Of a stretch of 64,000 bases of DNA, positions 1,909 to 62,169 are shown piece after piece; position 1 is the first letter of the stretch; each line of letters opens with the position of its first letter. The DNA comes from an uncultured Candidatus Saccharibacteria bacterium (GTDB lineage Bacteria > Patescibacteriota > Minisyncoccia > Phycocordibacterales > UBA9973). Under the pieces are notes generated by a model. It saw only the letters and a program-made list of their open reading frames with translations, searched no databases and was not told the origin of the DNA. The position numbers and the translations under genes were made by a program. The DNA lies in assembly GCA_964354935.1 (NCBI GenBank), contig CAYHBT010000001.1, positions 10,751 to 74,750 of the forward strand. The letters run 5' to 3'.

Positions 1909-4077
1909 ATGCGATCAAACACATTTGACAGGCTTTCGTTTTTGTCACTCTTTTTAGTAATAATATTATTACCTTTTTTCTTTTTACCTTTTACCAATAT
2001 TCCGGTGGGGATTTCTAAGGGAGCGCTTCTGGTGATTGGGCTTGCTTTTTCTGTTATTTTTTGGGGTTTTGCCAGATTTTTTGACGGAAAAATCATTCTT
2101 CCAAAATCAATGTTTCTTGCGGCGGGTGGGGGGATAGTTTTAGTATTTTTCCTTTCGGCTCTTTTAGTGAAAGCTTCGCAAGTGTCTTTCTTTGGCACAA
2201 TGCTTGATGTCGGCACTTTTTGGTTTATGTTTGCTGGTTTTCTTTTGATGCTTATGTGTTCTATTTCTTTCCGTCACCCCAAGAGCGCTAGGCTGGTTTT
2301 ATTTGGAGCGATACTTTCTGCCGCGATTGTTTTAATTTTTCAAGCTATTCGTTTGTTGGCACCTCAAATTCTATCGCTGGGAGTGTTGGCTTCAAAAACC
2401 GATAATTTAATCGGTTCTTGGAACGAGCTGGGTATTTTTGCCGGATTTTCCGCAATAATGTCGCTTCTTGTTGTTGAATTTTTTTCAACTACAAGAATGG
2501 AAAAATTAATACTTCAATCTCTGATTGTGCTTTCAATGATATTGATTGCTGCTGTTAATTTTGCATTTGTGTGGGGTTTGCTCGGACTTTCGGCTTTGAT
2601 AATCTTCGTCTATAAAATTTCAATTTCTTCTAGTCGTAAGTTTGCGCAAGAATCAAAAGTGGAAGAAAATGGAGAGAAACATATTCATATATCCGGTGAA
2701 GGTGAAGAAAAAAATTATTTTCCAGTCTTTTCTTTTGCGATAGTGATGATTTCCCTGTTATTTTTTATGTCCGGACAGTCCATAGGATCAATATTGCCAA
2801 ATCGTCTCGGAATACAAAACAATGAAGTCGGTCCCAGTTTTCAAGCTACGGTTGAAGTTGCCAAATCAGTTCTTAAAGACAATCTTATTTTCGGTATAGG
2901 TCCAAATAAATTTGGAGAAGCTTGGACTATGTACAAGCCGAAGGCGGTAAATAGCACCGCTTTCTGGAATGTTTCTTTTGATACGGGTTCTGGATTGCTG
3001 CCAACCTTGGTCGCTACTACTGGTTATGCCAGTATCCTTGCTTGGCTCGTATTTTTTGTCTTTTTTATGATAAGTGGTGTCAAGTCTATTTTTTCGAGCA
3101 TCAAACATGGAATAAATTGGGAGACGATGGCTTTTTTCCTTCTGTCTCTATATTTATTTATTTCTTCTTTCTTTTATTCGACCGGTTCGGTAATATTTTT
3201 ACTCGCTTTAGCTTTCGCCGGAGTGTTTGCTGGTTTATCTGCCACAAACAACAAAGAGGGAGAAATTTCCATAGCGTTTTTAAGTGACCATAGGAAAAGT
3301 TTCTTTTCGATGATGTTTCTGGTTGTTTTGGTGATTCTTTCAGTGGCTGTCTCTTTTAAATATGTGGAACGTTTTGTTTCTGTTTCGTATTTTAGAAAAG
3401 CGCTTGCAGCAGAAACTGTTCCGGAAGCTATTACCTCAATTAGTAAAGCTCTTTCTCTATATACTAATGATTTATATTTGCGAGCGTATTCAGATGTTTA
3501 TCTTTTGAAATTAAATTCTTTAGTTTCTAAAGGAGATTCTTTGTCGGAAGCGGAAAAGACAGATTTACAGACAAGTTTAGATCAAGCTGTTTTGGGTGAT
3601 CAGCAGGCAATTGTCTATAATCCTAAAAATTATTTAAATTTTAGAGCTCTCGGTTCTCTGTATCAAAATCTAGCTTCATACGGAGTGAAAGATGCTTACG
3701 CTCGAGCAGTCGAAGCTTATCAAGCAGCTTCTACTTTAAATCCAAACAACCCCGGACTTAAGCTTTCTATGGCCATCTCATCTATTGCGGATAAAAAAAT
3801 TGATTCAGCGAAAGAGTATACTAATGCTGCTCTGGTTTTAAAACCAGATTATATAGATGCGTGGATTGTTCTCGCAGAAATAGCTAAAAGCGAAGGAGAT
3901 ACAAAAAATGCGCTTGAGTATGCGGAGACAGCTCTATATTTGGCTCCCACAAATGAAGATTTGAAAAAATATGTTAATTCTTTTAAAAACTCCAACTCTT
4001 CTTCGGTGACAGCTCCTTCGAATATTACTCCTCCTGATACTTCAAAGACCCCCGACGGTCCTATTAAGAAAAAATAA
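1909..4077 (+). CDS. polytopic membrane protein, O-antigen ligase (Wzy_C)-like with C-terminal TPR repeats
   Basis: At least 10 predicted TM helices, followed by TPR-like repeats (AYSDVYLLKL, ALGSLYQNLASYG, AYQAASTLNP, ALYLAPTNEDL). Confidence 0.6.
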   Translation: MRSNTFDRLSFLSLFLVIILLPFFFLPFTNIPVGISKGALLVIGLAFSVIFWGFARFFDGKIILPKSMFLAAGGGIVLVFFLSALLVKASQVSFFGTMLDVGTFWFMFAGFLLMLMCSISFRHPKSARLVLFGAILSAAIVLIFQAIRLLAPQILSLGVLASKTDNLIGSWNELGIFAGFSAIMSLLVVEFFSTTRMEKLILQSLIVLSMILIAAVNFAFVWGLLGLSALIIFVYKISISSSRKFAQESKVEENGEKHIHISGEGEEKNYFPVFSFAIVMISLLFFMSGQSIGSILPNRLGIQNNEVGPSFQATVEVAKSVLKDNLIFGIGPNKFGEAWTMYKPKAVNSTAFWNVSFDTGSGLLPTLVATTGYASILAWLVFFVFFMISGVKSIFSSIKHGINWETMAFFLLSLYLFISSFFYSTGSVIFLLALAFAGVFAGLSATNNKEGEISIAFLSDHRKSFFSMMFLVVLVILSVAVSFKYVERFVSVSYFRKALAAETVPEAITSISKALSLYTNDLYLRAYSDVYLLKLNSLVSKGDSLSEAEKTDLQTSLDQAVLGDQQAIVYNPKNYLNFRALGSLYQNLASYGVKDAYARAVEAYQAASTLNPNNPGLKLSMAISSIADKKIDSAKEYTNAALVLKPDYIDAWIVLAEIAKSEGDTKNALEYAETALYLAPTNEDLKKYVNSFKNSNSSSVTAPSNITPPDTSKTPDGPIKKK

Positions 4078-4082
4078 TAAAA

Positions 4083-5762
4083 ATGGATAGGATTCTCCGG
4101 ATCTTTGGCAAAGAGTACGCAAACATAAATCAAGCCGCGTTGCTTTTGGGTTCTTTTGCTTTTCTTTCACAAGTGCTGGCTTTATTCCGTGATCGCTCCA
4201 TTGCCCATTTTATAGGTCCCTCACCCTTGCTCGACGCTTATTATGCGGCTTTTCGCATACCGGATCTTATTTTTATCTGCATAGCGTCGCTAGCTTCTAT
4301 CACAGTGCTTATTCCATTTATCACAGCGAAGATGAATGCGGGTGTAGTGACGGACCAAGCACGCAAGTATCTCAACGATGTTTTTACTGTTTTTTTGATA
4401 ATGATAATATTTGTCTCTCTTGTGGCTTTTTTTGCTATACCGTATTTGACATCTTTTATCGCACCAGGATTTACGCCAGATATGCAAGCAAAGGTTATTG
4501 AGCTTTCACGCATAATGCTCCTTTCTCCGATATTGCTAGGACTTTCTAATTTGTTTGGAAGTATCACACAACTTTTTTCTAAATTTTTTATTTACTCTTT
4601 GAGTCCAATTTTTTATAATATTGGAATTATTATTGGTGTTATTTTTTTGTATCCTTTGTTTGGAATTTATGGATTAGCAACTGGAGTTGCTTTCGGAGCC
4701 TTGATGCATTTTGGTATACAAGCATTTGCATCTAAAAGTTGTGGCTTTACGCTCCGATTTTCTTTTTCGATTAATTTTTCCGATATCAAAGCTTTGGCTC
4801 TCATATCTCTTCCAAGGACATTGGGTCTCGCGTTCAACAACATAGCCCTGATTTCTATTATCGCTCTCGCATCATATTTGGAAGAAGGTTCTATCTCAAT
4901 TTTTAATCTTTCTTTCAACCTTCAATCTGTGCCACTTAATATCATCGGCATCTCTTATGCGGTTGCGGCTTTCCCAACTTTAGCCAAATCAATTTCTTTG
5001 GGAAAACTGGAAGAATTCAGAAAACATCTTAAATCTGCCGCGCGGGCAATAATTTTCTGGTCTTTGCCAGTAACTTTTCTTTTTATAGTGCTTCGCGCAC
5101 AGATTGTGCGTGTGATTCTCGGTTCTGGAAGTTTTTCTTGGGATAACACTCGTCTAGTGGCGGCGTCGCTCGCAATTTTTTCTATTTCTGTCATTGCGCA
5201 GGGAATGATTGCTCTACTGTCTAGAGCTTATTATGCAAGGGGAGATACCAAGCGTCCACTTACAGTAAATTTATTTTGTTCTATTTTAATCATAATTTTA
5301 TCTTTTGTCTTTACATATCTATTTGAAAATCTACTTTTGTTTAGATATTTCATCGAATCTCTGCTTAAGGTGTCGGATATTCCGGGTACCGCAGTCCTTA
5401 TGCTACCGCTCGCTTATTCTGTCGGTACTATTTTTAATGCTATCCTGCATTGGTTTTTTGTCAGGCGAGATTTTATGGGAGGGGAATCTTTTATCACCAA
5501 GACATTTTTCCAAAGTTTGGGCGCCTCGTTCTTTCTGGGGTTAGTGGCTTATCTATCCTTAAATATTATTTCTCCCATCTTTGGCACCACCACATTTTTG
5601 GGGGTGTTTCTGCAGGGGTTTATTTCCGGAATTTTTGGAATAATAGCGGCTGTTTTTGTGCTTTATCTTTTAAATAATGAGGAACTCAAAGATATAATTA
5701 AAACTCTCAAAACTAAATTTTGGAATACTAAAATCATCGCCTCCTCTCAGGAGGGGCTTTAA
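4083..5762 (+). CDS. murJ: lipid II flippase MurJ (MviN)
   Basis: N-terminal LSQVLALFRDRSIAHFIGPSPLLDAYYAAFRIPDLIF signature of the MurJ family. 14 TM helices. Confidence 0.85.
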   Translation: MDRILRIFGKEYANINQAALLLGSFAFLSQVLALFRDRSIAHFIGPSPLLDAYYAAFRIPDLIFICIASLASITVLIPFITAKMNAGVVTDQARKYLNDVFTVFLIMIIFVSLVAFFAIPYLTSFIAPGFTPDMQAKVIELSRIMLLSPILLGLSNLFGSITQLFSKFFIYSLSPIFYNIGIIIGVIFLYPLFGIYGLATGVAFGALMHFGIQAFASKSCGFTLRFSFSINFSDIKALALISLPRTLGLAFNNIALISIIALASYLEEGSISIFNLSFNLQSVPLNIIGISYAVAAFPTLAKSISLGKLEEFRKHLKSAARAIIFWSLPVTFLFIVLRAQIVRVILGSGSFSWDNTRLVAASLAIFSISVIAQGMIALLSRAYYARGDTKRPLTVNLFCSILIIILSFVFTYLFENLLLFRYFIESLLKVSDIPGTAVLMLPLAYSVGTIFNAILHWFFVRRDFMGGESFITKTFFQSLGASFFLGLVAYLSLNIISPIFGTTTFLGVFLQGFISGIFGIIAAVFVLYLLNNEELKDIIKTLKTKFWNTKIIASSQEGL

Positions 5763-5796
5763 AATAGTAATTTTAAATGCTAAGATGGTTTGATAT

Positions 5797-7557
5797 ATGA
5801 AAGTTAATTTTTTAAGAATTTTTCATTATCTTTGGCCTCAAGCAAAAAAACACCGAGTTTCTTTGGTGCTTGTGCTTTTTGCTTATGGGGTTGGGGTGGC
5901 ACTCGACGCTCTCCTTAAACCCCTTATTTTCAAACAAATTATCGACCTTTTTTCCTCTAGCGAAAATAGGGAAATTGTTTTACACCAAGCATTATATTTT
6001 GCCGCAATTACCTGTGTAGTTATATTTTTCTACAACATAGCATATCGTGTAGGAGATTATTCCGCTTCTTATTTTCAAAGCAAAGTGATCAAGCGTCTAT
6101 ATGATTTGACCTTTGAAAATTTAATGAAGCATTCTTATCATTTTTTTTCCAATAATTTCTCCGGAAGCATTATTGCTAAAGCAAAACGCTTTGCAAGATC
6201 TTTTGAAGTGTTATCCGATATAATCTTTTTTCAGATTTGGTTCTCTCTCATCACTCTTATCGGAGTCTTTATTATTTTATTTTTTAAGACTCAATTGCTC
6301 GCTTATATATTTTTAGGCTGGTCTTTGTTCTATATCGGTGTCACTCTTTTGTTTGTCAGGAAAAAAATCAAATACGATATTGCTGAAGCGGCGGCGGATT
6401 CGATGGTCACAGGTCGTTTTTCTGACGCTATTTTAAACATTTTGAACATAAAGATATTCAGCAGTAATAAAAAAGAGGAGCAGAGTTTCAGGTTGGTGAC
6501 CAAAGATCAGGAAATAAAACAACGTAACGCTTGGAATTTTAGTAATTTTCAAAATATGGCTCAGTCTTTGATGATGGCTGTGTTGCAAGTCACTGTCCTT
6601 TTTGCCAGTATTCGTCTTTGGTATGAAGGAGATATGTCATTGGGTATGTTGGTGCTTCTCCAAACATATATGCTCACTCTATTTGATATTTTATGGAATT
6701 TGGCGCGCTCGCTCACTAAAGCAATGAAGGCGCTGACCGACATGAAAGAGGTGGTTGATATTTTTGATTTACCTATCGACATCATTGATCCAAAAAAGCC
6801 GGAAGTTTTAAAAATAAATAAAGGACACATTGTTTTTCAAAATGTCTCTTTTGCCTATAAGGGTGGAAATGCCGTATTGAAAAATTTCAATTTAGATATT
6901 ACCCCTGGGGAGCGCATTGGTTTGGTTGGGCATTCAGGCGCCGGTAAATCGACTATCACTAAACTGCTTCTTCGTTTTGCCGATACAGTGGAAGGAAGTA
7001 TCATTATTGATGGGCAAGACATAAAAAATTTAACGCAAAATGATTTGCGTTCGGTTATTTCTTACGTTCCGCAAGAATCTATTTTATTTCATCGCACAAT
7101 CGGAGAAAATATTGCTTACAGTAAGCCACAAGCTACACAAAAAGAAATAGTTGAAGCCGCAAAAAAGGCGCACGCTGATGAGTTTATTTCCCAAATGCAA
7201 AAAGGCTATGAAACAATGGTGGGTGAGCGCGGAGTGAAACTCTCCGGCGGAGAAAGACAGCGAGTGGCGATAGCTCGCGCGATGCTGAAAGATTCGCCGA
7301 TACTAATGCTGGATGAGGCGACGAGTTCGCTAGATAGCATCAGCGAATCGTACATTCAGGACGCCTTCAATAAACTAATGGAAGGAAAAACAACTATTGT
7401 GATTGCGCACCGACTTTCGACTGTCCAAAAAATGGACAGAATTATTGTTTTAGAACAAGGTAAAATTGTTGAAGAGGGTACGCATAAAGAACTTTTAGAA
7501 AAGAAAGGTTTTTACGCCAATCTTTGGGAACATCAGACAGGTGGATTTTTGGAATAA
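5797..7557 (+). CDS. ABC exporter, fused permease and ATP-binding domains (MsbA-like)
   Basis: Six N-terminal TM helices. Walker A GHSGAGKST, ABC signature LSGGERQRVAIARA, Walker B ILMLDEATSSLD. Confidence 0.85.
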   Translation: MKVNFLRIFHYLWPQAKKHRVSLVLVLFAYGVGVALDALLKPLIFKQIIDLFSSSENREIVLHQALYFAAITCVVIFFYNIAYRVGDYSASYFQSKVIKRLYDLTFENLMKHSYHFFSNNFSGSIIAKAKRFARSFEVLSDIIFFQIWFSLITLIGVFIILFFKTQLLAYIFLGWSLFYIGVTLLFVRKKIKYDIAEAAADSMVTGRFSDAILNILNIKIFSSNKKEEQSFRLVTKDQEIKQRNAWNFSNFQNMAQSLMMAVLQVTVLFASIRLWYEGDMSLGMLVLLQTYMLTLFDILWNLARSLTKAMKALTDMKEVVDIFDLPIDIIDPKKPEVLKINKGHIVFQNVSFAYKGGNAVLKNFNLDITPGERIGLVGHSGAGKSTITKLLLRFADTVEGSIIIDGQDIKNLTQNDLRSVISYVPQESILFHRTIGENIAYSKPQATQKEIVEAAKKAHADEFISQMQKGYETMVGERGVKLSGGERQRVAIARAMLKDSPILMLDEATSSLDSISESYIQDAFNKLMEGKTTIVIAHRLSTVQKMDRIIVLEQGKIVEEGTHKELLEKKGFYANLWEHQTGGFLE

Positions 7558-7596: not shown

Positions 7597-9429
7597 ATGA
7601 AATTAGAAAATATAAGAAATTTTTCAATCATCGCGCACATAGACCACGGCAAAAGCACCTTGGCTGATAGAATGTTGGAAATCACGCATACAGTCGAAGC
7701 GCGAAAAATGCGTGATCAAGTGCTAGATTCTATGGAGCTTGAACGCGAACGCGGGATTACTATAAAAATGCAACCCGTAAGAATGGAATACGCAGTAGGT
7801 GCCGAAAAATACATTTTAAATCTCATCGATACCCCAGGGCATGTGGATTTCTCTTATGAAGTTTCTCGCGCTCTAAAGGCTGTAGAGGGTTCTATTTTAC
7901 TGGTTGATTCCACACAGGGAGTGCAGGCGCAGACACTCACCACGCTCGCTATGGCTCGCGGAGACAGTCTTGAGGGAGAGAGGAAGATTATTCCGGTGAT
8001 TTCCAAAATAGATTCGCCACTGGCTAGAATATCTGAAGTAAAAGAAGAGGTTGTAAAACTTTTAGGTTGCGATGAAAGCGAGATACTTTTAGTGTCGGGG
8101 CGTACAGGAGAAGGAGTCGAGAATCTTTTACAGGAAATAATAAAACGCGTTCCAGCGCCACCCTCCTCCCCTCATGAAGGGGAGGAGGGTGGGGTGGTGG
8201 GGGTGTTGCGCGCTTTGATTTTTGATTTCAAATATTCCAATCACCGAGGCGTGATAGTTTTTGTGCGAGTTCTTGATGGTAATGTTAAAAAAGGCGACAA
8301 TCTGCTATTTGCAGTTTCTGGTGAAAAATTTACCGCGCTTGAAGTGGGAACTTTCTCGCCAGAAGAAACCGCCCGTGAATCTCTTTCTTCGGGGGAAATC
8401 GGTTATATTGTCACTGGCATAAAAAAACCCGGTATCGCTTCGGTTGGAGACACAATTACTAAATTATCCAATCCTTTGCCTGCGCTTTCTGGATATATGC
8501 AGCCTATGCCGGTGGTCTGGGCGAGTGTCTTTCCGGAAGACGCCGATGATTTTGCTTTGCTTAAACTTTCTTTGGGCAAGCTTAAACTTTCTGATTCATC
8601 TTTCTCTTTTGAAGAAGAATCCTCGGGATCTTTGGGTAGAGGATTTCGTTGCGGATTTCTCGGAATGCTCCACTTGGAAATTATCACCGAAAGGCTTAAG
8701 CGAGAGTTTAATTTAAACTTGGTGATTACGACTCCTTCTATTATCTATGAAGTGGAAAACAATCAAGGGAAAAAAGAAAAAATTTATTCTCCCTATTTTT
8801 TTCCGGACGATGGAAATATAAAAGTCGTATTCGAACCTTGGGTGCACGCTCGCATCATTACACCTTCTCAATATTTGGGCAATATTATGCAAATTTTATT
8901 TGATCACGAAGCCGAAATCGGAGAAACCGAAAATTTCGGGGATAATCGCTCATCTATATCAGTCAGAATGCCTCTGCGTGAATTAATGCGTAATTTTTTC
9001 GATGAATTAAAAAGCACTTCTTCCGGCTATGGATCGATATCATATGAAATGGCGGAAATGCGCGAAGCGGATGTCACTCGGCTCGATATACTGGTGGCAG
9101 ACGAAGTCGTCCCTGCGTTTTCTAAAGTTATTTCCAAAAAAAGAGCTGAAGTTGAGGCGGAAAGTTCTGTTTTGAAATTGGAAAGTTTGCTGCCTCGACA
9201 GATGTTTACTCTCAAAATTCAAGGCAAGGCATTTGGGCGTATTATTTCTTCACGCACACTTTCTGGTATGAAAAAAGATGTTACTGCTCATATGTACGGA
9301 GGCGACATCACTCGTAAAATGAAACTTCGCGAAAAACAAAAGAAAGGTAAAAAGAAAATGAAAGAGCGTGGAAGAGTGAATATTCCGCAAGATGTATTCT
9401 TGAAAATGATGCGCAACGGAGAGAACTAG
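7597..9429 (+). CDS. lepA: elongation factor 4 (LepA)
   Basis: N-terminus IRNFSIIAHIDHGKSTLADR with GTPase motifs. Full LepA domain order. Contains an in-frame 15-bp palindrome encoding PPSSPHEGEEGG. Confidence 0.9.
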   Translation: MKLENIRNFSIIAHIDHGKSTLADRMLEITHTVEARKMRDQVLDSMELERERGITIKMQPVRMEYAVGAEKYILNLIDTPGHVDFSYEVSRALKAVEGSILLVDSTQGVQAQTLTTLAMARGDSLEGERKIIPVISKIDSPLARISEVKEEVVKLLGCDESEILLVSGRTGEGVENLLQEIIKRVPAPPSSPHEGEEGGVVGVLRALIFDFKYSNHRGVIVFVRVLDGNVKKGDNLLFAVSGEKFTALEVGTFSPEETARESLSSGEIGYIVTGIKKPGIASVGDTITKLSNPLPALSGYMQPMPVVWASVFPEDADDFALLKLSLGKLKLSDSSFSFEEESSGSLGRGFRCGFLGMLHLEIITERLKREFNLNLVITTPSIIYEVENNQGKKEKIYSPYFFPDDGNIKVVFEPWVHARIITPSQYLGNIMQILFDHEAEIGETENFGDNRSSISVRMPLRELMRNFFDELKSTSSGYGSISYEMAEMREADVTRLDILVADEVVPAFSKVISKKRAEVEAESSVLKLESLLPRQMFTLKIQGKAFGRIISSRTLSGMKKDVTAHMYGGDITRKMKLREKQKKGKKKMKERGRVNIPQDVFLKMMRNGEN

Positions 9430-13030: not shown

Positions 13031-13049
13031 ATATCTATCCTTTTCCCAC

Positions 13050-13105
13050 GTTTTCGCAAGAACTTTTCGCAAGAACCGTTTTCGCAAGAACCGTTCTTGC
13101 GAAAG
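13050..13105. repeat. REP cluster: three tandem ttttcgcaagaac units ending in the perfect palindrome ttcgcaagaaccgttcttgcgaa
   Basis: Palindrome read directly from the sequence. It is repeated at 13805..13830. Confidence 0.8.
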
Positions 13106-13130
13106 TCTGGATGTTTAGTATAATTAAAGA

Positions 13131-13799
13131 ATGTTTCGTAAAGATCCATTTCTAACTGGTGAATACTACCACTTGTACAACCGTGGCATAGACAAGCGGG
13201 TAATTTTTAAACTAAAAAGAGATTACGAAAGATTTATGATGCTTCTTTATCTTGCAAATTCAAATGACTCTTTCCGACTTGATGATATTTTAAATAAAGA
13301 ACATAAGACATTTAGTGAAGTTTTAATATTAGAGAGAGGTGAACCGCTCGTTTCCATTGGCGCATGGTGCTTGATGACAAATCATTTTCATCTTTTAATT
13401 AGGCAAGAAATTGATGGTGGGATTACTAAATTTATGAGAAAGTTGGGTGTAGGATATTCAATGTTTTTTAATATAAAATATCAGAGAACAGGATCTCTTT
13501 TTGGTGGACTATTTAAATCAAAATTAATTGGAACTGATGATAATTACATGAGACAGTTGCTTGGATATATTCACATCAATCCTCTTGAGATAGAATTTCC
13601 CGAATGGAAAAATCAGATTAAAAAATCTTCAGTTGATATGAAAAAATTTCTTGAATCTTATAGATATTCTAGTTACCAAGATTATCTTGGCAAAGATAGA
13701 GTTGAGAAAAATATAATCAACCCTAAAGCTTTCCCTGAGTATTTTGAGAATTCAAAAAAGTTTGAGGATTTTGTTGATAATTATTTTGTTGAAATTTAA
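13131..13799 (+). CDS. REP-associated tyrosine transposase (RAYT; IS200-like Y1 HUH transposase) copy 1
   Basis: GEYYHLYNRG, HUH motif NHFHLL, and catalytic-Tyr region YIHINPLE. Confidence 0.8.
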   Translation: MFRKDPFLTGEYYHLYNRGIDKRVIFKLKRDYERFMMLLYLANSNDSFRLDDILNKEHKTFSEVLILERGEPLVSIGAWCLMTNHFHLLIRQEIDGGITKFMRKLGVGYSMFFNIKYQRTGSLFGGLFKSKLIGTDDNYMRQLLGYIHINPLEIEFPEWKNQIKKSSVDMKKFLESYRYSSYQDYLGKDRVEKNIINPKAFPEYFENSKKFEDFVDNYFVEI

Positions 13800-13804
13800 C
13801 CGAC

Positions 13805-13830
13805 TTTCGCAAGAACCGTTCTTGCGAAAG
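13805..13830. repeat. REP palindrome tttcgcaagaaccgttcttgcgaaag (3' flank of RAYT-1)
   Basis: Same palindrome as at 13081..13103. Confidence 0.8.
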
Positions 13831-13836
13831 TTGCTA

Positions 13837-15006
13837 TTATCCTTTTCCTACGGCTTCTGAGATATTTTTGTAGCCGTCTTTTTGGAGGAGTTGCACTAAT
13901 CCTAAATTTATATCGCTGATTAGTTGCGGACCTTCGAAAATCATTCCAGTGATGAGCTGTACGAGTGAAGCACCGGATTTTATTTTTCTATACGCGTCTT
14001 CTGCGCTAGATATTCCGCCGACGCCGATGATTACAAACTTTCCGTTTGTTTTTTTGTAAATATATCTTATTAATTCATCAGAAAGATTATCCAATACTTT
14101 GCCCGAAAGTCCGCCTAATTCTGATACATTTTTATCTATAATGTTTTTGTTGTCGCGGCTTTTTGTTAAATTAGTGCAAATAAATCCATCGATTTTCCAT
14201 TTTTCTGCGGTCTCGATTATTTCGCCAATTTCTTTTTTATCTAGGTCCGGAGACATTTTTAGAAAAATGGGTTTATTTTTAGGGACGGACATAATTTTTT
14301 CAAGCAAAGCATTTAATTTTACGCCATCATTAAACGGTTGACCGCCGAAAGCGTTTGGACAGCTGATGTTGATAGTGAAATAATCACCGATATCAGCCAA
14401 AATTTTATAAGCCTTAAAATAATCTCCTATTGCATTTTCAAGATCGGCTGTTTCTTTGCAGTTGGTCTTGGCTATGCTTATCCCGACCGGAATAGAGAAT
14501 TTTTTATTTTTTAATCTTTCAGCGATTTTTTCACAGCCGTCGTTTGCAAGACCATAATAAACAGCCAACGATTTGGATTTTTTTAATCGCCAAAGACGAG
14601 GTCTTGGATTACCTCTGCAAGGTTCTCCTGTGATTGATCCGGCTTCCATAAAACCGAATCCAATTGCTGGCATAATTTCCGTCAATTCAGCATTTTTGTC
14701 AAAACCAGCCGAAAGACCAACGGGGTTTTTAAATTTAATTCCCAAAATCTTTTGCTCCAAAGCCGGATTAAAATAATTAAAGCAAGCGCGGGAAATAGCT
14801 CTCGTTGTCGCATATTTACCCCAAAAAATTAGAAAGGCAGACATCCAGTCGTGAACCAATTCCGGATCAAATTTAAAGAAAATGGGCTTAAAAATCCATT
14901 TATACTTCTTTTCGATTATGAAATTTCTGGCAACAATTAGCTTATCTTGCATATGTTTTAATGGTAGCAAAAATGTGGTAAAATAAAAAGCGCAATGGAA
15001 GAACAA
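13837..15006 (-). CDS. pyrD: dihydroorotate dehydrogenase, class 2-like (quinone-type) with an N-terminal extension
   Basis: GFGFMEAGSIT, NISCPN and GVGGISSAEDA motifs of a DHODH TIM barrel. About 70 aa of hydrophobic N-terminal extension. Confidence 0.8.
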   Translation of the reverse strand: MFFHCAFYFTTFLLPLKHMQDKLIVARNFIIEKKYKWIFKPIFFKFDPELVHDWMSAFLIFWGKYATTRAISRACFNYFNPALEQKILGIKFKNPVGLSAGFDKNAELTEIMPAIGFGFMEAGSITGEPCRGNPRPRLWRLKKSKSLAVYYGLANDGCEKIAERLKNKKFSIPVGISIAKTNCKETADLENAIGDYFKAYKILADIGDYFTINISCPNAFGGQPFNDGVKLNALLEKIMSVPKNKPIFLKMSPDLDKKEIGEIIETAEKWKIDGFICTNLTKSRDNKNIIDKNVSELGGLSGKVLDNLSDELIRYIYKKTNGKFVIIGVGGISSAEDAYRKIKSGASLVQLITGMIFEGPQLISDINLGLVQLLQKDGYKNISEAVGKG

Positions 15007-16223: not shown

Positions 16224-17021
16224 ATGAATTCAAAAGCGCAAATTATGGCTACTATCGGTCCAGCCACCAAAGATAAAAAAATAATCGGAGAAATGATAGC
16301 AGGTAATATGGACATTGCTCGTTTGAATTTTTCTTGGGGAACTCATGAAGAGCACACTCTTTATATTAAAAATATCAGAGAAGAGGCGCAAAAAGCCGGT
16401 AGAATTATTCCAATCGTTCAGGATTTGTCCGGTCCAAGAATACAAGAAATAGCTGGACATAAATTCAACATCGAAGCGCTGGAGCTGATTACATCTAAAG
16501 ATTTGTCTGATTTAAAATTTGGCATTGAGCAAGGGGTGGATTATGTAGCGATGTCGTTTGTCGGACACAAAGACGACATTTCTAATTTACGGGATAAAAT
16601 GCGGGAATTCGGCAAAGTGATTCCGATTATTGCCAAAATTGAACGCGAAATCGCGGTTCGCAACATAAATGAAATTATAGAAAATTCCGATGCCATTATG
16701 GTCGCTCGCGGAGATTTAGGAAATGAAGTTCCGCTTGAGCAGATTCCTTTTATTCAAAAGGATATTATTGAAAAATGCAAAGCGGCAGGTAAGCCGGTAA
16801 TCGTCGCCACTCAAATAATGGAATCTATGATGCACAATCCATATCCGACTCGCGCCGAAGTCACAGATGTCGCCTATGCTGTATTAAATGGGGCAGATAT
16901 TCTAATGCTTTCGGAAGAAACCGCCATAGGAAAATATCCGCTCGAATCCGTCGCGATGATGGAAAGGGGAATGATTGAAGCGGAAAAACATCTAAAAGAT
17001 ATTAAAATAAATAGTTTATAA
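16224..17021 (+). CDS. pyk: pyruvate kinase, minimal form (A-domain TIM barrel only; no B lid domain and no C-terminal domain)
   Basis: IMATIGPA, ARLNFSWG, IIAKIE, MVARGDLG, KPVIVATQIMESM and MLSEETAIGKYP motifs. Only 265 aa. Confidence 0.8.
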   Translation: MNSKAQIMATIGPATKDKKIIGEMIAGNMDIARLNFSWGTHEEHTLYIKNIREEAQKAGRIIPIVQDLSGPRIQEIAGHKFNIEALELITSKDLSDLKFGIEQGVDYVAMSFVGHKDDISNLRDKMREFGKVIPIIAKIEREIAVRNINEIIENSDAIMVARGDLGNEVPLEQIPFIQKDIIEKCKAAGKPVIVATQIMESMMHNPYPTRAEVTDVAYAVLNGADILMLSEETAIGKYPLESVAMMERGMIEAEKHLKDIKINSL

Positions 17022-17024
17022 AAG

Positions 17025-17095
17025 TGCGGAATGGGGTAATCGAAACCCCGCCTAATCCTTGGGAAGGACTCATTCTACCACTAAACTAATTCCGC
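17025..17095 (-). tRNA. tRNA-Gly(CCC)
   Basis: Reverse complement reads gcggaattagtttagtggtagaatgagtccttcccaaggattaggcggggtttcgattaccccattccgca. Anticodon loop ttCCCaa. No encoded CCA. Confidence 0.75.
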
Positions 17096-17108
17096 ATATT
17101 GTCCAACA

Positions 17109-17133
17109 TTGTCCAACACTCGGTGTTGGACAA
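17109..17133. repeat. REP palindrome ttgtccaacactcggtgttggacaa, with a tandem half-copy just upstream
   Basis: Perfect palindrome. Flanks RAYT-2. Confidence 0.8.
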
Positions 17134-17799
17134 TCAATTTATCCAATCTAATTCTTCCTTTAACAGTTTTGCCGAGCTTGTTTTCACAAATTCATCATAT
17201 TCGTTTTTATTTTTAAACTGTCCGTTGATTATAGCAGTAATCAATAATTCTTCAAATCTATTTTTATTTACACAATCTTGATAGCTTGACCAAGGGTAAA
17301 TATTTTCTTTATTCAGCCACTCTTTTAATTCTCTTGGATTTCTGTGGATATACGCAGACAGGTATAGAAGCTGATTATTATCTTTTACATGTACTGCTTT
17401 GTATGGTCCCTGAAATAGGTGTCCTGATTTGTGGTATTTTGTATTGTAATATTTTGTATAACTATTCAAAACTCTTTGCATATATCTAGCGATACCATTT
17501 TCTTCAACTTCCTTAACGATCAAGTGAAAATGGTTTGACATTAAACAAAAAGAGGTGAGTTCCACGAATCTACCTTTTACGATTTCTTTTTTGGTTTTTA
17601 TATCAATGTCAAACACTGAGTGTTGGACAAATGATTTTATCGAACGACCAATCTGTTGAAAAACAGTAGGGGATTGAAAGTATAAAATTAAAAACAAAAA
17701 TCTTATTCTATCCATGTTGTCGTGAAAGATTAATTGTTTACTCATTCCGCGATTAAAGATATGATAATACTCTCCCGGTGCTATTTTTATATTTCTCAT
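17134..17799 (-). CDS. REP-associated tyrosine transposase (RAYT) copy 2
   Basis: GEYYHIFNRG, MSNHFHLIV and YIHRNPRE motifs. Confidence 0.8.
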   Translation of the reverse strand: MRNIKIAPGEYYHIFNRGMSKQLIFHDNMDRIRFLFLILYFQSPTVFQQIGRSIKSFVQHSVFDIDIKTKKEIVKGRFVELTSFCLMSNHFHLIVKEVEENGIARYMQRVLNSYTKYYNTKYHKSGHLFQGPYKAVHVKDNNQLLYLSAYIHRNPRELKEWLNKENIYPWSSYQDCVNKNRFEELLITAIINGQFKNKNEYDEFVKTSSAKLLKEELDWIN

Positions 17800-17826
17800 A
17801 TTACTATTATATAACTTTATTTCTAA

Positions 17827-17851
17827 CTGTCCAACACTCGGTGTCGGACAG
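17827..17851. repeat. REP palindrome ctgtccaacactcggtgtcggacag (other flank of RAYT-2)
   Basis: Near-perfect palindrome. Same family as the one at 17109. Confidence 0.75.
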
Positions 17852-32830: not shown

Positions 32831-32899
32831 AAAATGTGGTAATCTATTTTTTGAGCAGTACCGCCTTGGTCTCAATCCAAAGGCTATTGTCGGGATCAC

Positions 32900-33196
32900 T
32901 GGGTGATCCTAACAAGAGTCAACCAAACTGATTGGTGAAAAAGGGTCTAGTATGGATAAAAAAAAGAAGGTAGGCGGCACCAAGGTGGTGCCGATGGGAT
33001 TCAAGCCTGCTCAGGCTGAGCAGGTAAATTTCCGGCCGAAGTTCCTTCGTCCGGTCGAGAAACCGAATGTGGTTCGAGAGGTGCCGTTGGTCTGGAGACA
33101 GACCGCACGCGGGGGCACGTGGGATCGTGCCCATAGTATCTGGTAGGAGGTGTGACCGTCGGGAGAGTTCTCTCCCGGCGGTCATTTTATTTTTGC
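32900..33196 (+). ncRNA. candidate structured RNA, or a decayed foreign gene. A GC-rich run of at least six consecutive perfect hairpins ends in a strong intrinsic terminator. A 64-aa Lys/Arg-rich ORF (32952..33146) overlaps it.
   Basis: Hairpins cggcaccaaggtggtgccg, cctgctcaggctgagcagg, ggtctggagacagacc, gggcacgtgggatcgtgccc, and gaccgtcgggagagttctctcccggcggtc followed by a T-tract. Confidence 0.3.
33154..33196 (+). terminator. rho-independent terminator (14-bp stem plus a T-tract)
   Basis: gaccgtcgggagag ttc tctcccggcggtc followed by attttatttttg. Confidence 0.7.
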
Positions 33197-45715: not shown

Positions 45716-45757
45716 ACAGAGCCTAAGGCACTGGCTAGCCAGTGCCTTAGGCTCTGT
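45716..45757 (+). terminator. perfect 19-bp palindrome ACAGAGCCTAAGGCACTGG..CCAGTGCCTTAGGCTCTGT after ftsI
   Basis: Same family as the palindromes at 9431 and 35045. Confidence 0.5.
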
Positions 45758-51357: not shown

Positions 51358-51394
51358 TAGTTTATTTTAGCATATTTTAGAATTTGTATTTCAA

Positions 51395-56627: not shown

Positions 56628-58058
56628 ATGGCGAACAAATATTACCCCACAATTGGACTAGAGATTCACGCAGAATTAAAGACGGAAACCAAGATGTTTT
56701 GTGGTTGCAGGAATAATCCTGATGAGGAGAAGCCGAACACTAATATTTGTCCGGTTTGTATGGCGCATCCGGGGGCTTTGCCGGTTTTAAACAAGAAAGC
56801 CATAAAGAATGTTATCAAAGTTGGCTTGGCGGTCGGCGGCAAGATTGCAGACTTCACAGAATTTGACCGAAAAAATTATTTTTATCCGGACATCCCGAAA
56901 GGTTATCAGATTTCGCAGTACAAATATCCGATAGTTTCTGGTGGAAATTTGGCGGGCATAGACATCACTCGAGTGCATTTAGAAGAAGATACAGCGAATA
57001 ATAAACATGACAGGGGAGACTTCTCTTTGATTGATTTCAACCGTTCCGGCGTGCCGCTTATGGAGCTTGTGACTGAAGCGCATACTTTTGAAAGTGCAGA
57101 GGAGACAGCTAAGACAGCCTCAAAATTTGCCAAAGAGCTTCAGCTTATACTTTGGTACTTGGGTGTGTCTGAAGCGAATATGGAGAAAGGCGAAATGCGA
57201 GTGGAAGCGAATATTTCTGTTTCCACTGACCCCAAAAAATTAAGCACAAAAGTGGAAGTAAAAAATTTGAACTCTTTCAAGAGTGTGGAAAAAGCAATCA
57301 AGTTTGAGATAGATAGAATGATAGAACTTCATGAAAGCGGCAAAGCGTCGGAAATAGTGCAGGAGACGCGCGGCTGGGACGAATCAAAGCAGAAAACTTT
57401 TTCGCAGAGAAAAAAAGAGGGGAGTGCGGACTATCGATATTTTCCTGAGCCGGATTTACCGAAGCTGTATTTGCATAAGGCTTTCGATTTAGAAAAAATA
57501 AAAAAAGAATTGCCGGAATTACCGGAGGCAAAACGCGCACGATATAAAAAAGATTTTGGAATAAAAGAAGAAGATATAGAGGTTTACATAAATGATCCTG
57601 AACTGGGCGCATGGTTTGAAGAAGCGGCGAAGATTTTGAAAGATAAAGAAAAAATAAAAATAGCATCAAATTATATTACGACAGACTATATGGGTCTCAA
57701 AAAAGCCCACTTGGCGGTTAAACCGCCAAGTGTTGGGAATTTCGCTGAATTAATAAATTTGGTGGCAGAAAATAAAATTTCTTCACGAGTAGCGAAAGAT
57801 ATCTTGGCGATGATTGTTGTAAGCGATGAATCGCCGCTTAAAATTGCAACAGAAAAAAATCTTCTACAAAGTAGCGACACAGGTGAACTTAAAAAAATTG
57901 CTCAAAAAATTATCGATGCCAATCCGAAAGTTGTGGCAGACTACAAAGGCGGTAAAGAACAGGCCACAATGTCCTTGGTTGGACAAATAATGAAAGAAAC
58001 CAAAGGCTCGGCGAATCCGGCGGTGACGAAGCAAATATTAGTTGAACTTCTAAAATAA
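56628..58058 (+). CDS. gatB: aspartyl/glutamyl-tRNA amidotransferase subunit B
   Basis: YPTIGLEIHAEL and CGCRNNPDE N-terminal region. C-terminal YqeY-like domain. Confidence 0.9.
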   Translation: MANKYYPTIGLEIHAELKTETKMFCGCRNNPDEEKPNTNICPVCMAHPGALPVLNKKAIKNVIKVGLAVGGKIADFTEFDRKNYFYPDIPKGYQISQYKYPIVSGGNLAGIDITRVHLEEDTANNKHDRGDFSLIDFNRSGVPLMELVTEAHTFESAEETAKTASKFAKELQLILWYLGVSEANMEKGEMRVEANISVSTDPKKLSTKVEVKNLNSFKSVEKAIKFEIDRMIELHESGKASEIVQETRGWDESKQKTFSQRKKEGSADYRYFPEPDLPKLYLHKAFDLEKIKKELPELPEAKRARYKKDFGIKEEDIEVYINDPELGAWFEEAAKILKDKEKIKIASNYITTDYMGLKKAHLAVKPPSVGNFAELINLVAENKISSRVAKDILAMIVVSDESPLKIATEKNLLQSSDTGELKKIAQKIIDANPKVVADYKGGKEQATMSLVGQIMKETKGSANPAVTKQILVELLK

Positions 58059-59009: not shown

Positions 59010-60860
59010 TTGAAAAACTTGAAATCTGAAATTAAAAAATTTTTTAAGGGAGATGCGGAGGATAGTGAAGCGACCCTCTTTAAGTATTCGCACGATGCGA
59101 GCTTGCTCGAAGTGATGCCCAAGCTCGTGCTTTTTCCGAAAGATTCGGAAGATGTGAAAAATTTGCTTAAATGGGTGAATGCAAATTCCACTCGCTCAGA
59201 CTTACTAGAAAAATACGGCAAACTTTCTGTGACTGCCAGATGCGCGGGGACAGATATGTCGGGTGGAGCCATCGGAGAATCGATTATTTTGGATTTTACT
59301 CGTTATATGAATAAATTAATCGGCGGACCGTTGCCGATTGGCGGTGCGGGATTTAAAAAGAATAAAAATTATCCAGTTACGACTTCATCTATCACCGTGG
59401 AGCCCGGAATGTTTTATCGGGATTTTGAAAAAATAACTTTAGCAAAAGGACTTATCTTGCCCTGCTTCACCGCTTCAAAAAGCTTGAATGCGATGGGTGG
59501 AATGTTTGGCAACAATTCAGCGGGAGAGCGCACTTTGAAATATGGCAAAACCGAAGATTATATTTTGGAGACAAAGGTTGTCCTTGCTGATGGCAGTGAA
59601 TGCGTAGTTAAACCTTTAAACAAAGAAGAATTAAATAAAAAAATCGCACAGAATGATTTCGAAGGAGAAATTTATAAAAAAATATCTCAATTAATCACGC
59701 AAAATGAAGACGAGATAAGACATTCCAAACCAGTCGTTCATAAAAATTCTGCCGGATACTATATTTGGAATGTTGTGGAGGATTCGGCTGTAAAAAATTC
59801 TTCCGCTTTCCTCCACCCTGCGGGCGGAACCTTCCGCGGGGCGAATTCTTCACAGCCGAATCCTGAAGTGCCAAAAAATTCTCTTGATTCCTATTTTGAT
59901 CTAAACAAACTTCTCGTCGGCTCGCAAGGCACTTTAGGTATTGCGACCGAGCTGACTTTCAAAATAATACCGGAAAATAAGTATTCCAAATTAGTAGCGA
60001 TTTTTATGAAAGATCTGGCGCCGCTTGGTCGCTTGGTTGATGAGATTTTAAGATTAAACCCTGAAACACTAGAATCTTACGATGACAAGACGATGAGGTT
60101 GGCGGTACGATTTTTCCCAGATTTTTTGAAAACCAAAGGAATCTTTGGAATGTTGAAATTAATGAGGAATTTTTTGCCTGAATTTTTAATGATGATAAAG
60201 GGCGGTTTTCCAAAGCTGATTCTTTTGGTTGAATTTACCGGAGATGATGAAAAATTCGTCAATCAAAAATGTTTAAAGCTAGCAGATCAAATTAAAAATT
60301 TTAAATTAGAAGTTCACATCACCAAGTCCAACGAAGAGGCGAATAAATATTGGGATATCAGAAGAGAGAGTTTTGCTCTTTTGCGAAAACATGTAAAAGG
60401 AATGCGTACAGCGCCGTTTATTGATGATATCATCGTGCGACCAGAATTTCTACCGAAATTTATTCCCGAGCTGAATACTATTTTAAGCAAATATAATCTA
60501 ACTTACACGCTGGCGGGGCACGCGGGAGATGGCAATTTTCATATTATTCCTCTGATGGATTTCAAACGCCCCGATATTGCTAAAATAATAATGGATCTTT
60601 CTGAGAAAGTTTACGATTTAGTGGCGAAATATCAAGGTTCAATTACCGCCGAACACAATGACGGATTAATTCGCACTCCATATCTTAGTAAAATGTACGA
60701 CGAGATAATGCTTAAAATTTTCGCGCAAATTAAGGAAATTTTTGACTCCAAAAATATTTTAAATACTGGAAAAAAAGTCCCGACAGAAAATTTCGGTGGA
60801 ACGAAAGAATACATTGCTTCGCATATCGCGATGGAACACCAAGCTGGGCACAAAATTTAA
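59010..60860 (+). CDS. FAD-linked oxidase (GlcD/D-lactate dehydrogenase-like, FAD_binding_4 plus C-terminal domain) containing the same in-frame 60-nt repeat found in leuS
   Basis: FAD_binding_4 region (GAGTDMSGGA). C-terminal oxidase domain. Shares the repeat peptide KNSSAFLHPAGGTFR with leuS. Confidence 0.7.
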   Translation: MKNLKSEIKKFFKGDAEDSEATLFKYSHDASLLEVMPKLVLFPKDSEDVKNLLKWVNANSTRSDLLEKYGKLSVTARCAGTDMSGGAIGESIILDFTRYMNKLIGGPLPIGGAGFKKNKNYPVTTSSITVEPGMFYRDFEKITLAKGLILPCFTASKSLNAMGGMFGNNSAGERTLKYGKTEDYILETKVVLADGSECVVKPLNKEELNKKIAQNDFEGEIYKKISQLITQNEDEIRHSKPVVHKNSAGYYIWNVVEDSAVKNSSAFLHPAGGTFRGANSSQPNPEVPKNSLDSYFDLNKLLVGSQGTLGIATELTFKIIPENKYSKLVAIFMKDLAPLGRLVDEILRLNPETLESYDDKTMRLAVRFFPDFLKTKGIFGMLKLMRNFLPEFLMMIKGGFPKLILLVEFTGDDEKFVNQKCLKLADQIKNFKLEVHITKSNEEANKYWDIRRESFALLRKHVKGMRTAPFIDDIIVRPEFLPKFIPELNTILSKYNLTYTLAGHAGDGNFHIIPLMDFKRPDIAKIIMDLSEKVYDLVAKYQGSITAEHNDGLIRTPYLSKMYDEIMLKIFAQIKEIFDSKNILNTGKKVPTENFGGTKEYIASHIAMEHQAGHKI

Positions 60861-60862
60861 AT

Positions 60863-60888
60863 TTGCGTTAGAGGTCTTACCTAGTGCA
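60863..60888. repeat. degenerate REP3 copy (ttgcgttagaggtcttacctagtgca)
   Basis: Resembles the gcgttaggtcttgcctaacgc palindrome. Confidence 0.5.
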
Positions 60889-60900
60889 GAAAAAATTATT

Positions 60901-61419
60901 ATGGATCAACAATTTAAACAAATAAATCAAAATCAGTTTTCAAAAGGTGAGATTGAAAGTACAAGAAAGCTTAAGGAAAGAGCAGATATTAAACAAAATA
61001 TCGTTACAGCTATTCACAACGGAAATGCTGAACAATTAGTGAACGCTATTCAGAAAGCTAGGTATGTATTATTTGATCTTGAACACAAAGACCCCAAAAT
61101 AATGGATAGACAGAATAGATTGCATGTTGATGACGGCCACTGGCAGAGGCAGTTTGAAAAATTTCTTCAGGAAGTAAAAAGGAATGACGAACGCAAAGAT
61201 TATACTAATAATTCAGGCGAGATATATCTAGATGGTGTTTCAAGGATTTTCATTGAAGTTAAAGGAGATGAAGTCAAGCTTATACCTTCTTCGGTGTCTA
61301 AAGCAGAAGTCGCAAATATCTTAGCTCTCATAAATCAAGCCTTTGATTTTTATTACGACAAAGATAAATCAGTAGTTAGCCCAGAACTGAAAGCCTATAT
61401 TGAAACCAACCCAAATTAG
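60901..61419 (+). CDS. hypothetical protein bracketed by REP3 copies (listed ORF 60796..61419; likely start MDQQF at 60901)
   Basis: ORF only; no motifs recognised. Confidence 0.35.
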   Translation: MDQQFKQINQNQFSKGEIESTRKLKERADIKQNIVTAIHNGNAEQLVNAIQKARYVLFDLEHKDPKIMDRQNRLHVDDGHWQRQFEKFLQEVKRNDERKDYTNNSGEIYLDGVSRIFIEVKGDEVKLIPSSVSKAEVANILALINQAFDFYYDKDKSVVSPELKAYIETNPN

Positions 61420-61423
61420 ATTA

Positions 61424-61449
61424 CTGCGTTAGGTCTTGCCTAACGCAAG
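61424..61449. repeat. REP3 palindrome ctgcgttaggtcttgcctaacgcaag
   Basis: Perfect palindrome. The listed RAYT-3 ATG lies inside it. Confidence 0.8.
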
Positions 61450-62143
61450 GGTTATTTGGTATTATATTAATATGTCTATTCGGAAAGTGAACTTAGTTCA
61501 AGGTGAGTATTATCACATTTACAATCGCGGCAATAGTAAACAGAAAATTTTCCACGACAAGGAGGATTATTTAAGATTCATTTCTTTGCTTTATATTTCA
61601 AATACAAGCGAAAGTTTTAATCTTTACGATTTAAGCAGAGATCCTAATTTTAATATTTACGAGTTAGAAAGGAATAATCTTTTGGTTAACATAGGAGCAC
61701 ATTGTCTGATGCCAAATCATTTTCATATATTGATGACCGAAATATCAGAAGGAGGAATAAGTAAATTTATGCAAAAACTAGGTACTGCTTATTCTATGTA
61801 TTACAACACAAAGTACGAAAGAACTGGCGGGTTGTTTGAGGGCAAGTTTAAAGCTCAACACGCAAGTACAGATCGACATTTAAAATATTTATTTTCTTAT
61901 ATACATTTAAATCCAGTAAAGCTTATTCAAAGAGATTGGAAAGAGAAAGGGATTAAAAATAAAAGAGAAGCGATAGACTATCTGATTAAATATACTTATT
62001 CAAGCTACCTAGATTTTATGGGGGACAAGCGAGTTCAAAATAAAATATTAAATTTAGAATCATTCCCAAATTACTTCCCTAACAAGACTTCATTTAACGA
62101 AGAAATTTTTGAGTGGCTTAGCTTTCAGGAAGAATTGCGTTAG
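61436..62143 (+). CDS. REP-associated tyrosine transposase (RAYT) copy 3 (probable start MSIRKVN at 61473)
   Basis: GEYYHIYNRG, MPNHFHILM and YIHLNPVK motifs. Confidence 0.8.
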   Translation: MPNARVIWYYINMSIRKVNLVQGEYYHIYNRGNSKQKIFHDKEDYLRFISLLYISNTSESFNLYDLSRDPNFNIYELERNNLLVNIGAHCLMPNHFHILMTEISEGGISKFMQKLGTAYSMYYNTKYERTGGLFEGKFKAQHASTDRHLKYLFSYIHLNPVKLIQRDWKEKGIKNKREAIDYLIKYTYSSYLDFMGDKRVQNKILNLESFPNYFPNKTSFNEEIFEWLSFQEELR

Positions 62144-62169
62144 GCAAGACCTAACGCAACCTAACGCAA
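62135..62169. repeat. REP3 palindrome ttgcgttaggcaagacctaacgcaa plus a cctaacgcaa half-copy. Overlaps the RAYT-3 stop codon.
   Basis: Perfect palindrome in inverted orientation relative to 61424. Confidence 0.8.

Follow-up and report, generated by a model that had tools for sequence, protein, structure and literature searches.

Three RAYT-like Y1/HUH genes with cognate palindromes in a 64-kb stretch of a Patescibacteria genome

What is known of repetitive extragenic palindromic sequences (REPs) and their REP-associated tyrosine transposases (RAYTs) comes almost entirely from work on Proteobacteria and a small number of other cultured phyla, and their role in the host is still debated. The best structural match to the genes described here is E. 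coli TnpA-REP (RayT/YafM, PDB structure 4ER8), a Y1/HUH enzyme with a Y---NP tyrosine motif. Its REPtron consists of a single-copy gene between cognate hairpin-forming palindromes; several such systems with palindromes of their own may share a genome, and palindromes also occur away from the gene and inside open reading frames (ORFs) (PMC6006769, PMC8266576). These traits recur, the palindromes away from the gene in related genomes, in three genes, RAYT-1, RAYT-2 and RAYT-3, of an uncultured Candidatus Saccharibacteria bacterium of the Patescibacteriota (contig CAYHBT010000001.1), found in a stretch of 64,000 nt that we call the window. We consider it probable, at roughly three in four, that they are three separate REPtrons, that is, single-copy class 2 Y1/HUH RAYT-like genes, each with cognate palindromes on both sides, of a large lineage in Patescibacteria. 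The kind of system is known; the host lineage is previously undescribed for RAYT/REP. Literature searches joining the Candidate Phyla Radiation (CPR) or Patescibacteria with REP, RAYT or IS200 returned no relevant paper, within the literature searched. The genes and their palindromes lie in the window as follows.

13131..13799, plus strand: RAYT-1, a 222-aa Y1/HUH protein with NHFH and YIHINP
17134..17799, minus strand: RAYT-2, a 221-aa Y1/HUH protein with NHFH and YIHRNP
61472..62143, plus strand: RAYT-3, a 223-aa Y1/HUH protein with NHFH and YIHLNP
13080..13104: upstream REP-1 palindrome, 12-nt arms and 1-nt centre
13803..13831: downstream REP-1 palindrome, 14-nt arms
17108..17134: REP-2 palindrome on the 3' side of RAYT-2, perfect, 12-nt arms and 3-nt loop
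17827..17851: REP-2 palindrome at the 5' flank of RAYT-2, with a single mispaired position
17606..17630, minus strand: REP-2-like segment inside RAYT-2, 3 mismatches, encoding FVQHSVFD
61425..61447: upstream REP-3 palindrome, loop TCTTG
62135..62159: downstream REP-3 palindrome, loop CAAGA, inverted with respect to the upstream copy and overlapping the TAG stop codon (62141-62143)

The three proteins are Y1/HUH enzymes of the Y---NP (TnpA-REP-like) class. A sequence-only reading of this stretch had named three such genes by their GEYYH..NRG, NHFH and YIHxNP motifs; all were found, RAYT-1 and RAYT-2 with exactly the boundaries it gave, and all three exceed the gathering cut-off of 23 bits of the Pfam model PF01797 (Y1_Tnp), with 24.5, 37.3 and 34.3 bits for RAYT-1, RAYT-2 and RAYT-3. 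They are mutually 33-44% identical and also have a C-terminal (W/Y)SSY in common. Across 60 sequences from three clades, N84-H85-F86-H87, H148 and N150 are invariant and Y146 is kept in at least 90%; in a larger set, NH.H is present in 360/360 homologues and Y..NP in 339/360. The Y---NP motif is the signature of class 2 TnpA-Y1 proteins, whereas IS200 has Y---Q (Quentin et al. 2018, Table 1, PMC6006769), and the three proteins thus belong to class 2 (TnpA-REP-like) and not to IS200.

The fold leads to the same relatives. The AlphaFold model of RAYT-1 (predicted local distance difference test, pLDDT, 91.7; predicted template modelling score, pTM, 0.90) had as its best PDB match 4ER8, the E. coli TnpA-REP with a REP hairpin (Foldseek, E = 2.4e-5), behind which the IS608 and ISDra2 TnpA structures took ranks 2-5 and 7; the matches 4ER8, 2XO6, 2VJV and 2A6M each reached a probability of 1.00. 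Since a search of PDB with a profile of the three sequences gave nothing at E <= 1, the link to 4ER8 comes from the fold search only. In sequence, a window RAYT is only 13% identical to 4ER8, and the RAYTs differ from E. coli TnpA-REP by about 70 extra C-terminal residues with the (W/Y)SSY motif.

At the level of motifs the proteins fit subclass 2.1 (Bertels Group 1; the TIRYTs of Di Nocera et al. 2013, PMC3733652), with which they have in common NH[YF]H, 'FQ' for 'WQ', Y[IV]HLNP and a proximal SS tail. The median length of that subclass, 238 aa, is also similar. TIRYTs have terminal inverted repeats that are long and contain GGGGWSAS, and a C-terminal helix-turn-helix (HTH, DnaA_C-like) domain is present in many of them (PMC3733652), whereas the window RAYTs are flanked by short perfect palindromes and gave no Pfam match to an HTH or DnaA_C domain.

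Each gene lies between copies of a palindrome of its own, as had been proposed from the sequence. We searched for each palindrome in the window with up to 3 mismatches, against 100 dinucleotide shuffles; REP-1, REP-2 and REP-3 were each found only beside their own gene, and 0/100 shuffles gave a match. Folded as single-stranded DNA (ssDNA), the palindromes have energies of -10 to -14 kcal/mol (z about -7), and the hairpin of the upstream REP-1 reaches -14.4 kcal/mol (z = -7.5). They differ from the palindromes of the E. coli REPtron in having no 5' GT[AG]G tag, in being perfect, with loops of 1-5 nt and no bulge, and in the very low copy number of each family, where visible. Intrinsic terminators were ruled out as an identity for the palindromes: they lack a T-run on the downstream side and were absent from the output of the terminator scan.

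The arms undergo compensatory evolution, and each protein clade is paired with one palindrome family. REP-1 arms differ across orthologues by paired changes (TTCGCAAGAAC, TCTAGCAAGAAC, TTCGCAAGGAC), as do REP-2 arms (GTCCAACAC, GTTAAACAC, GTTCAACAC), around an unchanged CGA loop, and REP-3 across homologues (GCGTTAGG, CTGCTAGG), around an unchanged TCTTG loop. The variable pair of REP-1 is A-T 142 times, G-C 106 times and mismatched 12 times. At 152 REP-2 sites, the three variable pairs are Watson-Crick 130, 112 and 118 times, where 65, 56 and 97 would be expected, and ten different arm triplets occur in this family. Thirty-five distinct homologues had usable flanks: 24 carry a perfect palindrome on both sides, the two copies matching in 20/24, and over all 35 the palindrome family tracks the protein clade, remoter clades carrying other palindromes.

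RAYT-2 also contains, as the sequence-only reading had noticed, a REP-2-like segment within its coding sequence. This internal copy sits N-terminal to HUH and is conserved in the clade members L053, L059, L063, L080, L093 and L108 (L with a number is our handle for a compared sequence); FV[KQ]H[SR]VF[ND] occurs in 94/120 RAYT-2 homologues, and both loop orientations are found. The RAYT-2 and L110 clades thus carry cognate palindromes in-frame, like subclass 2.4, in which REP copies lie in-frame in tnpA-REP; they differ from it in the position of the RAYT-2 copy and in the motif set. For RAYT-3, the ORF 61436..62143 reported earlier does exist, and a TTG start at 61436 would make a protein of 235 aa. 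We take ATG 61472 as the likely start because it aligns with the paralogues, gives the 223-aa product of the gene callers and has a -10 box 6 nt upstream. The claim that REP-3 overlaps both ends of its gene stands for the stop codon, whereas the start codon is overlapped only if TTG 61436 is used.

The upstream palindromes overlap the promoters of two of the genes, as follows.

13097..13124, plus strand: RAYT-1 promoter TTGCGA-16-TATAAT, sigma-70-like, -35 box in the right arm of REP-1
17806..17833, minus strand: RAYT-2 promoter TGGACA-16-TATAAT, sigma-70-like, 11/12 matches, -35 box in the arm of the upstream REP-2

Within 5.2 kb no promoter-like match is better than these two, and in both the -35 box is supplied by the right arm of the upstream palindrome. 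The same layout is found in the RAYT-1 orthologues L004 and L014 and in RAYT-2 orthologues. For each of the three genes, 6 nt separate the end of the -10 box from the ATG, a spacing that suggests leaderless transcripts, which would begin 6-7 nt past the box.

Outside this genome the palindromes are not confined to the genes. REP-1 and REP-2 families are dispersed in many Patescibacteria, with about 70-77% of the sampled sites away from a RAYT; these counts refer to sites among the matches listed and not to copies per genome, and nearby RAYTs were detected with a hidden Markov model (HMM) built from 150 homologues. The scan with TGTNNNACACCGAGTGTNNNACA (REP-2 family, one genome per species) gave matches listed nearly all in Patescibacteria, and 77/100 sites among them, in species-representative genomes, have no RAYT nearby. 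Such dispersed sites are intergenic, beside tRNA ends, after terminators or in-frame in long ORFs, the in-frame copies lying at homologous ORF positions in different genomes. In the metagenome scan with TCGCAAGRACNGTYCTTGCGA (REP-1 family), among the matches listed and off contig ends, 55 sites lack a RAYT and 21 flank one. Exact REP-3 copies lie away from RAYT-3 in L030, L070 and L097, and in-frame palindromes were found in pheT-like ORFs of L046 and L107. In REPINs, palindromes come mainly as closely spaced inverted doublets (Bertels and Rainey). Such doublets are not the rule here: dispersed REP-1 and REP-2 sites are mostly singletons, with a few pairs 0.07-1.5 kb apart, often in the same orientation.

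The RAYT lineage is very large and essentially confined to Patescibacteria. RAYT-1 had 1,187 homologue matches, the best 120 at 76-90% identity, RAYT-2 had 2,434 and RAYT-3 at least 7,944, and the named homologues are almost all from Parcubacteria/Patescibacteria. When 1.84 billion cluster representatives were searched with a profile, at least 1,585 clusters (at 50% identity) matched with E <= 1e-30, a number that rose to 16,585 with E <= 1e-10. The suggestion that several RAYTs are unusual in a small streamlined genome does not hold within this clade: Parcubacteria have thousands of homologues from each of the RAYT clades, and two RAYT-type genes lie 3 kb apart at another Nomurabacteria locus, which indicates that several paralogues per genome are normal in this clade.

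Low copy number, the lack of recent duplicates and largely vertical inheritance are a hallmark of RAYTs (Bertels et al. 2017), and they are what we find, in paralogues at 33-44% identity and in syntenic orthologues. The L014-type orthologue of RAYT-1 (77% identity) occupies the same slot, between a MOFRL gene and pyrD, on a backbone LeuRS-MurJ-ABC-LepA-DivIC-...-enolase-PK whose proteins are 62-86% identical to those of the window. RAYT-2 orthologues (77-86%) are always between glutaredoxin and tRNA-Gly(CCC), the tRNA gene directly following RAYT-2 and its REP in every orthologue examined. Synteny therefore supports vertical inheritance of RAYT-1 and RAYT-2. At homologous loci the flanking palindromes are kept, and neither for RAYT-1 nor for RAYT-2 did we find a clean empty site whose boundaries were precise. 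L027 lacks RAYT-1, and pyrD too; in L014, which lacks RAYT-2, tRNA-Gly(CCC) (14765-14836, after pyk) is inverted relative to the window (17024-17095), and no REP-2 remnant was found at it. RAYT-1-clade genes also occur in other contexts, in L004 and L275. Third-codon identity between RAYT-1 and L004 is 0.60, against 0.38 for LepA, so that horizontal transfer is likely in this case. RAYT-3 homologues with the same REP-3 sequence are found in unrelated contexts.

Signs of activity come from extra half-arms and direct repeats around the units.

13051-13076, plus strand: extra left half-arms of REP-1, TTTTCGCAAGAAC twice in tandem
17098..17107: extra half-arm of REP-2, ATTGTCCAAC
62160-62169: extra right half-arm of REP-3, CCTAACGCAA, directly after the downstream REP-3
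13036..13050: TATCCTTTTCCCACG, bordering the REP-1 array, the left member of a pair of 15-nt imperfect direct repeats and a remnant copy of the 3' end of pyrD
13838..13852: right member of the pair, 15 nt, the functional 3' end of pyrD (minus strand, ..VGKG*)

Two contigs that come from other samples agree fully with the window apart from the number of REP-1 half-arms: L002 has a further 20 nt upstream (about 3843-3862, window 13078) and L003 a further 15 nt downstream (about 2131-2145, window 13801). Duplicated outer half-arms are seen again at orthologues and next to dispersed copies. The two copies of the pyrD repeat that brackets the RAYT-1 unit are identical at 14/15 positions, a score that 0/300 shuffles reached; outside the REPs of RAYT-2 and RAYT-3 no direct repeats above chance were found. 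In L275 a RAYT-1-clade unit lies between murJ and an ABC gene, a place that in the window is an empty spacer of 35 nt (5762-5797), and the L275 unit is bracketed by an imperfect repeat of 42-47 nt of the murJ 3' end (about 3960-4004 and 4760-4805). Units in L243, L076, L266 and L134 are flanked by repeats of 30-65 nt. Since target duplication is not expected of Y1 transposition, such transposition would not readily account for these flanking repeats.

There are also pairs of REP-1- or REP-2-family palindromes without a RAYT, 0.7-1.5 kb apart, that enclose accessory genes. Pfam confirmed a YafQ-type toxin in L055 (87-975) and RhuM in L069 (1528-2300). Judged from the letters alone, a putative antitoxin lies beside the YafQ toxin, and pairs in L164, L165, L172, L205 and L244 would enclose GNAT, peroxiredoxin with VIT, HicB-like, AbiEii-like and pilin genes. 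These pairs are suggestive of cassettes. One could go further and propose that whole REPtron units insert at gene 3' ends or terminators with variable target duplications of 15-65 nt, and that palindrome pairs bound and shuffle small cassettes with accessory genes such as toxin-antitoxin, RhuM, GNAT or pilin, palindromes also adding in-frame segments to housekeeping proteins. We hold this only as a speculative extension, rather doubtful at present, and such long and variable duplications do not fit the peel-and-paste of IS200 type.

Several points weigh against REPtrons. The NCBIfam RAYT model NF047646 scores the three proteins at 27.6, 33.2 and 39.3 bits, missing its equivalog cut-off of 80. 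Subclass 2.1 has been reported without nearby REP-like sequences (PMC6006769). Characterised RAYTs select their cleavage sites by a GTAG/CGTC tag (PMC8266576); no conserved flanking tetranucleotide was found in 153 oriented REP-2-family sites, and no GTAG/CGTC tag is visible beside REP-1 or REP-3. Finally, no dispersed REP-1, REP-2 or REP-3 was found in the window and about 10 kb of extra flank from the same strain, about 74 kb in total. The sequence-only reading of a RAYT/REP system is largely right: the enzyme class, the cognate palindromes and the dispersed families of relatives bear it out, whereas this genome shows no dispersed copy in those 74 kb. The main rival explanation takes each unit for an autonomous insertion sequence of IS200 type that transposes as a whole, palindrome-gene-palindrome, lone palindromes being solo ends or resembling miniature inverted-repeat transposable elements. 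The differing sites of RAYT-1-clade units (MOFRL/pyrD in the window, murJ-ABC in L275, another context in L004) would agree with it, and so would the imperfect repeats of target DNA (15 nt in the window, 30-65 nt in L275, L243, L076, L266 and L134), the third-codon values that point to horizontal transfer, and the G+C content of the RAYT genes, 30-31% against 38% for the whole window. IS200/IS605 TnpA proteins (IS608, ISDra2) do have the HUH/Y1 fold in common with the RAYTs, and their subterminal hairpins are recognition elements, as the palindromes would be, with a presumed chemistry on ssDNA. However, these elements are multicopy and nearly identical, with Y---Q, a TnpA of about 130-150 aa, unlike left and right ends and no target duplication, and none of this fits the RAYTs: there are no near-identical copies, the proteins have Y---NP and are 70 aa longer than IS200 TnpA, and RAYT-1 and RAYT-2 are syntenic across genomes whose core genes are about 70-80% identical. 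We therefore regard the insertion-sequence explanation as unlikely.

Two further explanations seem to us very improbable. The palindromes could be only local regulatory sites of a domesticated gene, that is, an operator or promoter element or an mRNA 3' stabiliser, and not mobile. The -35 boxes in the upstream arms of RAYT-1, RAYT-2 and their orthologues, at the two best promoters of the 5.2 kb, are what such a role would predict, and in the window the palindromes are indeed only at the genes; against it, the families lie at many unrelated sites far from any RAYT (intergenic, tRNA-adjacent, in-frame in pheT-like ORFs, gatB and other ORFs), half-arm number is polymorphic between strains, and RAYT-2 has a copy within its own coding sequence. 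It is equally hard to believe that the dispersed palindromes were spread by an unrelated process, such as replication slippage, another enzyme or uptake signals, with RAYT adjacency reflecting a preference of insertion site. This genome does have many palindrome families at 1-3 copies each, several with no RAYT in view, and the GTAG guide tag is lacking. Yet protein clade and palindrome family match across 35 distinct units, the same family lies on both flanks, and the internal copies of the RAYT-2 and L110 clades belong to the family of their own flanks.

By analogy with E. coli TnpA-REP (PMC3479197, PMC8266576), we hypothesize that the palindromes of these REPtrons fold into hairpins on ssDNA, for example on the lagging-strand template, and that the cognate RAYT would recognise the hairpin, cut through a 5'-phosphotyrosine intermediate and rejoin the strand. 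Cutting and rejoining could copy or move hairpins in trans, and binding at the upstream palindrome may also autoregulate RAYT transcription. The genes themselves would be mostly inherited vertically at fixed loci, occasionally moving or being transferred as whole units.

Other features of the window lie around these systems; the REP-3-like sequence among them was read directly from the letters.

17024..17095, minus strand: tRNA-Gly(CCC), 2 nt from the REP-2 half-arm
60856..60878: degenerate REP-3-like sequence GCGTTAGAGGTCTTACCTAGTGC
60901..61419, plus strand: hypothetical ORF of 172 aa, between the degenerate and the upstream REP-3
57708..57732: orphan palindrome CACTTGGCGGTTAAACCGCCAAGTG, in-frame in gatB, a fourth REP family

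A degenerate third REP-3 had been thought to enclose a cargo ORF. The degenerate copy is there, and L030 has an exact third copy of REP-3 in the analogous position (9189). For the ORF of the window neither Pfam nor NCBIfam gave a match, and this ORF is not similar to the one in the corresponding place of L030, so that there is no conserved cargo at REP-3. RAYT-2 does adjoin tRNA-Gly(CCC), as proposed; the pyruvate kinase next to it (16224-17021, 265 aa) had been called truncated and is not, because its L014 orthologue, 71% identical, is just as long. In L027, a PPDK gene takes the position that pyk has in the window. The family HMM found no fourth Y1 gene in the 64-kb window, and Rfam found only tRNAs there. 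The palindrome family of gatB flanks a distant RAYT in L110, lies twice inside that gene, and has orphan copies in L036 and L085.

The window holds further palindromes. In lepA (8158-8192) a perfect GC-rich palindrome with 15-nt arms (CCACCCTCCTCCCCT/AGGGGAGGAGGGTGG) lies in-frame in a variable loop; it is absent from four orthologous LepA genes, which are 1-6 residues shorter there. Perfect palindromes at 35046-35084 and 45716-45757, with 16- and 21-nt arms and the common arm CAGAGCCTAARGC, lie inside a thioredoxin-reductase-like ORF and at the called start of a Mur-ligase ORF, respectively, with no cognate gene in view. Palindromes rich in CCTCC/GGAGG at 48170-48191 and 51394-51417 (and at 8158) adjoin a TTACCACCCC-like motif; with similar composite elements in L024, L266, L107 and L245, they may be another repeat family. 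About 550 nt past the right end of the window, in the same genome (L277, 11722-11763), a tandem palindrome doublet ACATAGGTC[G/C]GACCTATGT lies between rpmE and prfA, and its family resembles the palindromes that flank a RAYT in L107. Just upstream of tRNA-Glu, a GC-rich, ORF-poor stretch with several hairpins (about 32840-33195) has at its end a terminator-like hairpin (33153-33184) with a T-run behind it; the stretch has no credible Rfam match even at E <= 1 and may be an unrecognised structured RNA.

The short palindromes of lepA, gatB and the pheT-like ORFs of L046 and L107 show that a reduced genome can tolerate such repeats in-frame within its housekeeping genes. In this they resemble Rickettsia palindromic elements, which are longer, about 100-150 bp, and are not known to have a cognate HUH enzyme. 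Intragenic REPs are a further parallel (Di Nocera et al. 2013).

Compared with the literature searched, what is new is the host clade, the tag-less perfect palindromes, the REP association of a subclass-2.1-like protein, the promoter inside the upstream palindrome and the flanking direct repeats. An enzyme of a type previously thought to lack REPs is here paired with simple, tag-less perfect palindromes, and several such systems coexist in genomes of roughly one megabase. With these minimal enzyme and hairpin pairs one can ask by what means a Y1 enzyme recognises a hairpin that is symmetric and lacks a guide tetranucleotide. The palindromes explain oddities in the assembly and annotation of CPR metagenome-assembled genomes, among them indels between strains, unusual insertions in conserved proteins and extended start codons, and would be a source of structural variation in genomes usually called static and streamlined. 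If whole-unit insertion and cassette shuffling were true, they would provide hairpin-based plasticity to otherwise streamlined genomes, and REPtrons would be more than domesticated relics.

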